Of a stretch of 22,311 nucleotides of DNA, positions 1,546-2,103 are shown piece by piece. Positions within the stretch are counted from its first letter, which is position 1. The number at the start of each line of letters is the position of its first letter. Location: the IMG/VR virus record IMGVR_UViG_2711768068_000023, positions 1 to 22,311 of that record; one strand, written 5' to 3'. Both the position numbers and the translations under genes were made by a program. The notes below the pieces were generated by a model, which made no database searches, had not been told where the DNA came from, and saw only the letters and a list, made by a program, of their open reading frames with translations. The stretch is from a virus (Duplodnaviria > Heunggongvirae > Uroviricota > Caudoviricetes).

Positions 1546-2103
1546 TTATATACGTCCTTTAAGATAAGTCAGTCCTGGATGAAACCAGTAAGCCGGCACT
1601 TTTTTAAAGGGCGGGTTGTCAAACTCACGAAGAAGAGCCTCCCGCACAACTGCATCCTTGTCAGCACCACTGGCCAGCGCTTCAATCTCAGCAGCTATCT
1701 GCAGATATCCCATGCAACGACCAATGCACTTCATCAGCCCCTGCTTTTTATTGTTCTTCAGGTAATCAATGGCAAATTCAATGAGCTCCTCACTATGCTG
1801 GTGCGATGGCGGTGTTACTTTCCCATTTTCTGAGATGGTTATTTTCCCAGCATCACCGGATACAACAAAGGATGGCCGGTTACACTCCCATTCCAGCTCA
1901 CTGAAATTATCATTATGAATACTGAAACACTCTGAGAGATTTCTGCTCATCACTTTCCGACAATAATCGTCAAACGCAGCAAACTGCTCATCGCGGCGTT
2001 TTTTTTCATCTTCAGAAGGCATCAGCGTCGACAGTTTTTTATTCAGTTCAGCAATTTCATTTTCCAGACGACTGAAGCGCTGATTCATTTCTTCATGGTT
2101 CAT
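1546..2103 (-). CDS. Hypothetical protein (185 aa) inserted between holin and endolysin
   Basis: ATG at 2103 lies 4 nt after the holin stop with a strong GGGGAG/AGGTG RBS. N-terminal predicted coiled coil; no recognisable catalytic motif. The track start at 2106 is a GTG. Confidence 0.6.
   Translation of the reverse strand: MNHEEMNQRFSRLENEIAELNKKLSTLMPSEDEKKRRDEQFAAFDDYCRKVMSRNLSECFSIHNDNFSELEWECNRPSFVVSGDAGKITISENGKVTPPSHQHSEELIEFAIDYLKNNKKQGLMKCIGRCMGYLQIAAEIEALASGADKDAVVREALLREFDNPPFKKVPAYWFHPGLTYLKGRI

Follow-up and report, generated by a model that had tools for sequence, protein, structure and literature searches.

The ORF at 1546–2103 and its surroundings

The window, i.e. the whole stretch of 22,311 nucleotides analysed here (IMG/VR record IMGVR_UViG_2711768068_000023), comprises half a lambdoid prophage. 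Its lysis genes all lie on the minus strand in the order S, ORF, R, Rz/Rz1, and the ORF investigated in this study is situated between the genes of a pinholin (S) and a SAR endolysin (R). The features of this region were as follows.

3027–4958: NanS-p-like esterase, in the same late operon as the ORF
2107..2322, minus strand: S21-type class II pinholin, 71 aa (Pfam Phage_holin_2_1, PF04971, E=8.5e-33; phrog holin matches)
2112..2117, minus strand: Shine-Dalgarno sequence GGGGAG, within the last codons of the holin gene, 8 nt 5′ of the ATG of the ORF
1546..2103, minus strand: 185-aa ORF, ATG at 2101–2103, stop codon at 1546–1548
1918..2103, minus strand: predicted N-terminal helical module, residues 1–62 (AF2 helices, heptad spacing, alignment A1)
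1549..1890, minus strand: conserved C-terminal domain (C-domain), residues 72–185 (AF2; alignments A3 and A4)
970..1503, minus strand: SAR endolysin (R21-type lysozyme), 177 aa (Phage_lysozyme, PF00959, E=1e-23; phrog_7 endolysin)
506..991, minus strand: Rz i-spanin (Pfam Phage_lysis, E=5.3e-30)
547..753, minus strand: Rz1 o-spanin, embedded in Rz (ORF with the lipobox-like sequence LIMVAGC)

The pinholin gene, which carries the dual-start motif (Met1 and Met4), ends with the stop codon TAG at 2107–2109. Across the junction the minus strand reads CGGGGAGAT TAG GTG ATG; i.e. the end of the holin gene is ...CGG GGA GAT TAG and the next bases are GTG ATG. The ATG of the ORF starts at the fourth nucleotide past the pinholin stop, with 3 nt between them, and the GTG one codon 5′ of this ATG is in frame, giving a 186-aa version of the product. 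The coordinates, start, ribosome-binding site and gene order described in an earlier note on this DNA were confirmed, with the ATG at that fourth nucleotide and GGGGAG 8 nt upstream. The stop codon of the ORF is separated from the start of the SAR endolysin gene by 42 nt. A consensus scan revealed no promoter-like or terminator-like sites on the minus strand within the S-ORF-R stretch, and co-transcription of the three genes is therefore likely. The co-expression with lysis that the earlier note had deduced is likewise probable, the ORF being coupled to the holin with no such site inside the stretch. Comparison of three 185-aa alleles gave dN/dS values of 0.23–0.35, indicating purifying selection on the ORF.

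Also present in the window were genes for an integrase, a dGTPase-type defence protein, a CI-like repressor, CII, Ash, Dam, RusA, KilA-N and DUF968 proteins and, ahead of the lysis genes, antiterminator Q, three tRNAs, the NanS-p-like esterase, DUF1378 and DUF826. The late region at 2399–5740 is arranged as in Stx phages (Q, tRNA-Met/Arg/Arg, NanS-p-like esterase, DUF1378, DUF826, S). No stx genes were found in the window, nor between the tRNAs (5489–5740) and the esterase (3027–4958). At the other end, a 408-aa HD-domain protein (19490–20716, plus strand) adjoins the integrase (21088–22311, minus strand). It matched the PADLOC dGTPase anti-phage defence model (E=1e-104) and the Pfam families HD and HD_assoc, and has the appearance of a defence gene carried by the prophage at its attachment-site end.

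The protein and its family

The window protein is acidic (pI 5.8, 21 kDa) with a GRAVY of -0.65. Its maximum 19-residue Kyte-Doolittle hydropathy was 0.95, compared with 1.83 for the holin. Neither a membrane segment nor a signal peptide was found in it, and the product is predicted from these properties to be soluble. The full-length AF2 model, for which only E. coli sequences had been aligned, was of low quality (pLDDT 57 overall) and was therefore left out of the fold searches. In this model, helices were predicted at residues 3–27 and 31–62, the first 20 residues having block-mean pLDDT values of 84 and 90. Residues F10, L13, I17, L20, L24 and L27 follow a 3–4 spacing in a heptad pattern, and the region of residues ~10–27 is leucine-zipper-like. 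The N-terminal coiled coil proposed in the earlier note is thus supported by both helices and by the heptad-spaced hydrophobic residues.

The C-domain was modelled separately (residues 72–185) with Salmonella sequences added to the alignment, which yielded a pLDDT of 90.7 and a pTM of 0.83. The fold predicted by AF2 consists of a three-strand beta meander followed by four helices. Foldseek searches with this model gave best E values of 1.1 in the PDB and 0.47 in BFVD, and no solved or viral structure was matched; the domain is, as modelled, a confidently predicted fold without detectable relatives. Conserved within it are H103 and the motifs GR(C/S/A)MG(Y/L)LQxAAEIE, (F/L)DNPP(F/L)K and WxxPGxxYLK. 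A candidate metal site, HxH...C, had been drawn from the E. coli alignment and was rejected, as H101 and C130 vary in the Salmonella relatives and only H103 is nearly invariant. No catalytic or metal-binding signature survived the wider alignment with the Salmonella relatives.

Database searches gave no significant Pfam or NCBIfam family for the ORF. PF07041 (DUF1327) did not hit the product at E<=0.1 and the domain is also absent in alignment A1. The PADLOC defence HMMs returned 0 families at E<=1, and a phmmer search of PDB sequences gave only non-significant coiled-coil hits, the best with E=0.04. In agreement with the earlier note, which had recognised no enzymatic motif, no enzymatic or Pfam domain was found. 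The product is identical to the RefSeq entry WP_001015164.1 ('hypothetical protein'), and the ORF recurs with 100% DNA identity in E. coli strain 10671 from cattle faeces, where the gene order is also the same. The ORF matched the profile HMM of PHROG 1085, which is catalogued as of unknown function, with E=5e-112 and 375 bits, residues 2–186 falling on profile positions 117–296 of 296; this PHROG was matched by all 37 members of alignment A4. At E<=1e-3, 169 protein clusters matched the ORF, and the source-named hits among those listed were all from E. coli. Judged by the phrog_1085 match, these clusters and the dN/dS values, the ORF is a real gene, beyond chance. Related DNA occurred in 811 of 5,426 complete E. 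coli genomes (~15%), with <=5 copies per genome, and a match covering >=80% of the gene in 278 of the 5,426. By these counts the ORF belongs to a common, already catalogued, uncharacterised family of E. coli prophages. A common uncharacterised lysis-cassette family, which the earlier note had held would, together with the lack of a deletion phenotype, speak against its view of the gene, is what phrog_1085, the 169 clusters and the 811 genomes represent. No literature was found on the gene of this ORF or on phrog_1085.

The family is modular. Common to all its members is the conserved C-terminal domain of ~110 residues, and in most of them a short linker resembling a zipper (...RxxxLENEIAELNKKLS...) and then a variable middle region precede it. 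Long members of 268–329 aa, annotated as 'YdfR family' or 'DUF1327 domain-containing', additionally possess an N-terminal DUF1327 (PF07041). In the alignment the window protein corresponds to this architecture minus DUF1327 and starts two codons ahead of the linker; its N-terminal module is the linker that in long members is placed between DUF1327 and the C-domain. Phrog_2091 and phrog_15975 matched this N-terminal segment of the product alone. Homologues of 287–296 aa with PF07041 showed 81–86% identity over 98% of the query, and E. coli O55:H7 contains an intact 329-aa ORF whose C-terminal half is near-identical to the window protein. The long YdfR-family proteins (Stx2 phage 86 orf5; O55:H7 CB9615 G2583_RS31920; phrog_1085) occupy the same position between holin and endolysin with the same start junction, their C-terminal domain is 84–99% identical to that of the window protein, and most share the zipper linker. 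They differ in the N-terminal DUF1327, which the window protein lacks, and the N-terminus of the latter is, unlike theirs, an allele of the 213-aa short forms. Since the N-terminal 45 residues of the window protein resemble these 213-aa forms and its middle segment resembles the long forms of 287–329 aa, the 185-aa gene is itself a recombinant.

Two of the long-form loci carry the RefSeq label 'YdfR family protein, incomplete, missing C-terminus' (L004 3000–3893 and L005 3001–3990, both minus strand), the remainder of the gene being unannotated. The ORF listing showed that both ORFs are intact, with 297 and 329 aa, respectively. Long forms consisting of DUF1327 and the C-domain appear to be systematically mislabelled as truncated pseudogenes by automatic RefSeq annotation. 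Frequent pseudogenisation, as read from the 'incomplete' labels, was rejected, as the loci hold these intact ORFs.

A profile search of 1.84 billion representative proteins yielded only 43 clusters, indicating that the family is narrow. With the C-domain profile, prophage proteins of Salmonella enterica were recovered at 35–44% identity and E values down to 6e-47. These proteins (165–242 aa; P0161–P0185) share with the window protein a homologous C-domain and a place in the late operon. They often contain a short LEERVAALEKxL zipper, and some have a distantly DUF1327-like N-domain, the similarity being weak and collinear (pairwise E=0.014). They differ in location, lying in the interval between antiterminator Q and the holin instead of between holin and endolysin. 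This was the case for all five proteins looked up, in 11 of the 12 places returned, the locus ending at the gene in the twelfth; the Salmonella loci are mutually related and should not be counted as independent. The holin at these loci is of the PF04971 or PF16080 type and the endolysin follows it directly. A scan of one genome per species found three loci only, all in Escherichia or Shigella, with a search pattern that would miss some Salmonella alleles. Taken together, the comparisons describe a narrow, enterobacterial, prophage-borne family whose genes lie in the late operon near the holin, bound neither to the S-R position nor to one holin family.

The Salmonella homologues adjoin HicAB or ParE toxin-antitoxin genes. 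HicAB or ParE/HTH pairs occupy the Q-to-holin interval there, with further cargo around the lysis genes, and an N6/N4 DNA methyltransferase gene lies between endolysin and Rz in prophages with homologues (coordinates of the methyltransferase and toxin-antitoxin cargo: L010 5917–6846, L010 3118–3779 and L020 2025–2725).

The S-R slot in E. coli phages

The position of the gene was determined in 80 IMG/VR viral contigs carrying the C-domain, in which holin and endolysin were placed by tblastn. In 76 of these contigs the C-domain gene lay between an S21-type holin and the endolysin. In three of the remaining four the flank runs past the end of the sequence, and in the fourth (L102) ~470 nt downstream contained no endolysin match. 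The question raised in the earlier note, whether orthologues always sit between holin and endolysin genes, thus receives a divided answer: they do in 76 of the 80 viral contigs, but the Salmonella homologues lie upstream of the holin. Among the 80 loci, the 185-aa architecture was found in 22 and forms of 213–222 aa in 16; DUF1327-bearing architectures comprised 268 aa in 20 and 329 aa in nine, and a 311-aa architecture was found once. Shorter ORFs with starts far from the holin were observed in ~11 of the 80.

In related phages the 3′ end of the holin gene, CGGGGAGAGTAR, precedes the ATG of whichever gene follows S and supplies its Shine-Dalgarno sequence. In 933W-like Stx2a phages, e.g. PA4 and P13803, the slot is empty and the gene after S is R itself; the holin and endolysin-start DNA of the empty-slot phages is ~91–92% identical to that of the window. 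A spread sample was drawn, consisting of 60 of the 362 phage records that matched both holin and endolysin start. About half of this sample showed empty-slot spans of 402 or 370 bp, while other records contained a DUF1327-only gene of ~114 aa, as in BP-4795, with a span of ~797 bp. Most of the gene of the ORF was present in only three of the phage records. The slot is occupied in BP-4795, phage 86 and PhiR12, among others. The 114-aa ORF47 of BP-4795 (PF07041 only) lies in the same slot, from class II holin to lysozyme, and its function is likewise unassigned. The Qin prophage of K-12 presumably also carries a gene in the S-R slot (ydfR). Both K-12 YdfR and ORF47 consist of DUF1327 and a short helix and have no domain in common with the window protein.

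Single loci with a damaged or partial gene were also found. In one O111:H8 genome an IS1203 element (IS3-family; L006 3389–4602) is inserted in the slot gene and splits it into a 49-aa N-terminal ORF and the C-terminal 115 codons, and in strain A34 the C-terminal part of the gene alone is retained.

By these sequence comparisons, the S-R junction is a recurrent polymorphic slot of E. coli lambdoid and Stx prophages that is either empty or filled by a YdfR-family gene. The statement of the earlier note that in phage-21-type cassettes the holin is directly followed by the endolysin holds for the 933W-like phages PA4 and P13803, but not for BP-4795, phage 86 or PhiR12. Nor is an occupied slot unusual, as that note had supposed; the slot is recurrently polymorphic and the 185-aa form is the commonest single architecture (22/80).

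Further differences were seen around the start of R (compared at window 1504–1545 and 2104–2120 and around 404–409 of L026 and L027). Its N-terminus is MSRKLRYG in the empty-slot phages versus MNTKIKYG in the occupied-slot phages, and the region upstream of R in an occupied slot, GATAAATCCTGATAAATATCC, contains no obvious Shine-Dalgarno sequence. In loci with 213- or 268-aa forms, an ORF of ~105–118 aa on the opposite strand was observed between the slot gene and R (L018 1135–1491, L019 1131–1487 and L002 2730–3044, all plus strand). In 30 of the 80 viral contigs it was visible as a spacing of ~453 nt between the slot gene and R. The comparative papers and reviews on Stx-phage lysis cassettes cover S, R, Rz/Rz1 and the stx-to-S interval, not the S-R slot.

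Possible roles of the ORF product

The most probable reading, to which we assign a probability of roughly 0.55, is that the ORF is a dispensable accessory gene of the late operon (a 'moron') whose product is a cytoplasmic protein-binding protein and not a core lysis component. The gene would be transcribed only once antiterminator Q opens the late operon and would be translated from the Shine-Dalgarno sequence in the last codons of the holin gene, so that the holin and the ORF product would be expected to be made at the same time. The product would be a soluble, acidic, cytoplasmic protein of 21 kDa, probably oligomeric via its N-terminal zipper, and its C-domain, a compact unit of beta meander and helical bundle that lacks a catalytic signature, would most likely bind a partner protein. 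This partner might be a cytoplasmic component of host or phage that the protein targets during the final minutes leading up to lysis, and would not belong to the holin-endolysin-spanin machinery. We infer oligomerisation, protein binding, dispensability for lysis and a cytoplasmic site of action, the dispensability because the slot is empty in close phages, IS1203 is inserted in O111:H8 and only a partial copy is present in A34. Three roles had been proposed in the earlier note, i.e. lysis regulator, timing factor or cargo. Accessory cargo appears to fit the comparative data best, owing to the empty slot in close phages, the IS disruption and the Salmonella homologues that lie outside the S-R interval beside a different holin family. 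As the C-domain has no fold relative, nothing positive indicates any specific target.

A family member was found within one gene of a holin in every locus examined, in E. coli as well as in Salmonella, and this proximity is also what a lysis-linked function would predict. The product could then regulate lysis timing from the cytoplasm: by contacting the pinholin at its charged cytoplasmic C-terminal tail, or by binding a membrane-stress factor of the host, it would make triggering occur earlier or later. Translational coupling of the ORF to the holin, by which both are probably made in step, would suit such a role. T4 RIII is a small cytoplasmic protein acting on the T4 holin, and accessory lysis regulators such as T4 rI and rIII can be dispensable too, so that an empty slot is compatible with regulation. 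The S21-71 antiholin, T4 RI/RIII and the releasin gp25 of Mu resemble the ORF in being encoded in or near lysis cassettes, expressed late and dispensable for lysis. Antiholins, RI and releasin are, however, membrane or periplasmic proteins, whereas the window protein has no membrane segment, and sequence and fold searches found no similarity of the window protein to antiholins, T4 RI/RIII or Mu gp25. By analogy, an RIII-like cytoplasmic mode is possible for the window protein. A timing regulator is unlikely: many phages with nearly the same holin and endolysin-start DNA (~91–92% identity) leave the slot vacant, the pinholin is equipped with a dual-start antiholin motif of its own, and the Salmonella homologues go with the different holin family PF16080. 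A more specific version, in which the C-domain is a new fold that tunes pinholin firing from the cytoplasm, either by binding the charged C-terminal holin tail in a T4 RIII-like mode or by neutralising a host membrane-stress protein, for instance the ESCRT-III-like PspA, is a long shot. If it were true, the shuffling of alleles and domains in the S-R slot would give prophages that are otherwise alike different lysis times, and with them different times of Stx and NanS-p release.

The relationship to YdfR points in another direction. A bacterial two-hybrid assay showed an interaction between residues 1–72 of K-12 YdfR (DUF1327) and the N-terminal, catalytic half of RNase E (PMC13232886, 2026). 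In the same study Rne(1-598) was recovered together with Strep-tagged YdfR on purification, RNA was likewise present in the YdfR preparation, and YdfR overproduction altered few transcripts (PMC13232886). The family might thus modulate host RNA turnover with or instead of YdfR, the long forms docking to RNase E via DUF1327 and the short form acting through the shared C-domain or through zipper hetero-oligomers with the YdfR of co-resident prophages. That the window protein shares linker and C-domain with DUF1327-bearing proteins, and that E. coli genomes contain up to five family copies, would accord with this proposal. The window protein lacks DUF1327, however, the sole part shown to bind RNase E; the C-domain itself has no link to RNA or RNase E, and the few transcripts changed on overproduction also speak against it. 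As the RNase E result concerns a domain that is absent here, it is of use as a lead on the family but does not count as evidence on the ORF, and we regard a role in RNA turnover as distinctly unlikely. That the gene is merely a decaying remnant, i.e. a hitch-hiking, formerly long YdfR-family gene left without its N-terminal domain and without a function of its own, is suggested by the domain missing relative to the 268–329-aa forms, by the further N-terminally truncated ORFs in ~11 of the 80 loci and by the IS-interrupted and partial copies. The dN/dS values of 0.23–0.35 argue against decay, as do the high frequency of the 185-aa form (22/80), with its canonical start and Shine-Dalgarno sequence kept at the holin junction, and the wide distribution of the related 213–222-aa forms, which also lack DUF1327; this explanation is very unlikely. 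Least of all would we expect cargo with an extracellular activity that leaves the cell when the phage lyses it, as do Stx and the NanS-p esterase, whose gene lies immediately upstream in related phages. The ORF shares its late operon with the NanS-p-like esterase and its product has neither signal peptide nor membrane segment, but neither a motif typical of enzymes or toxins nor a matching fold was found, and a zipper with a small helical domain is more like an intracellular binding protein.

The additions made here are descriptive: the S-R junction as a defined polymorphic cassette site, the 185-aa gene as a DUF1327-less isoform of an extended YdfR family, a predicted C-domain fold without detectable relatives, and the RefSeq mislabelling of long forms. 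None of them shows a new mechanism. The operon to which the gene belongs governs lysis and the release of toxin in Stx-type prophages, and related DNA is present in ~15% of complete E. coli genomes. Any effect that the ORF or the longer family members might have on lysis timing or on RNA metabolism of the host would bear on the output of Shiga toxin and phage from a lysogen.
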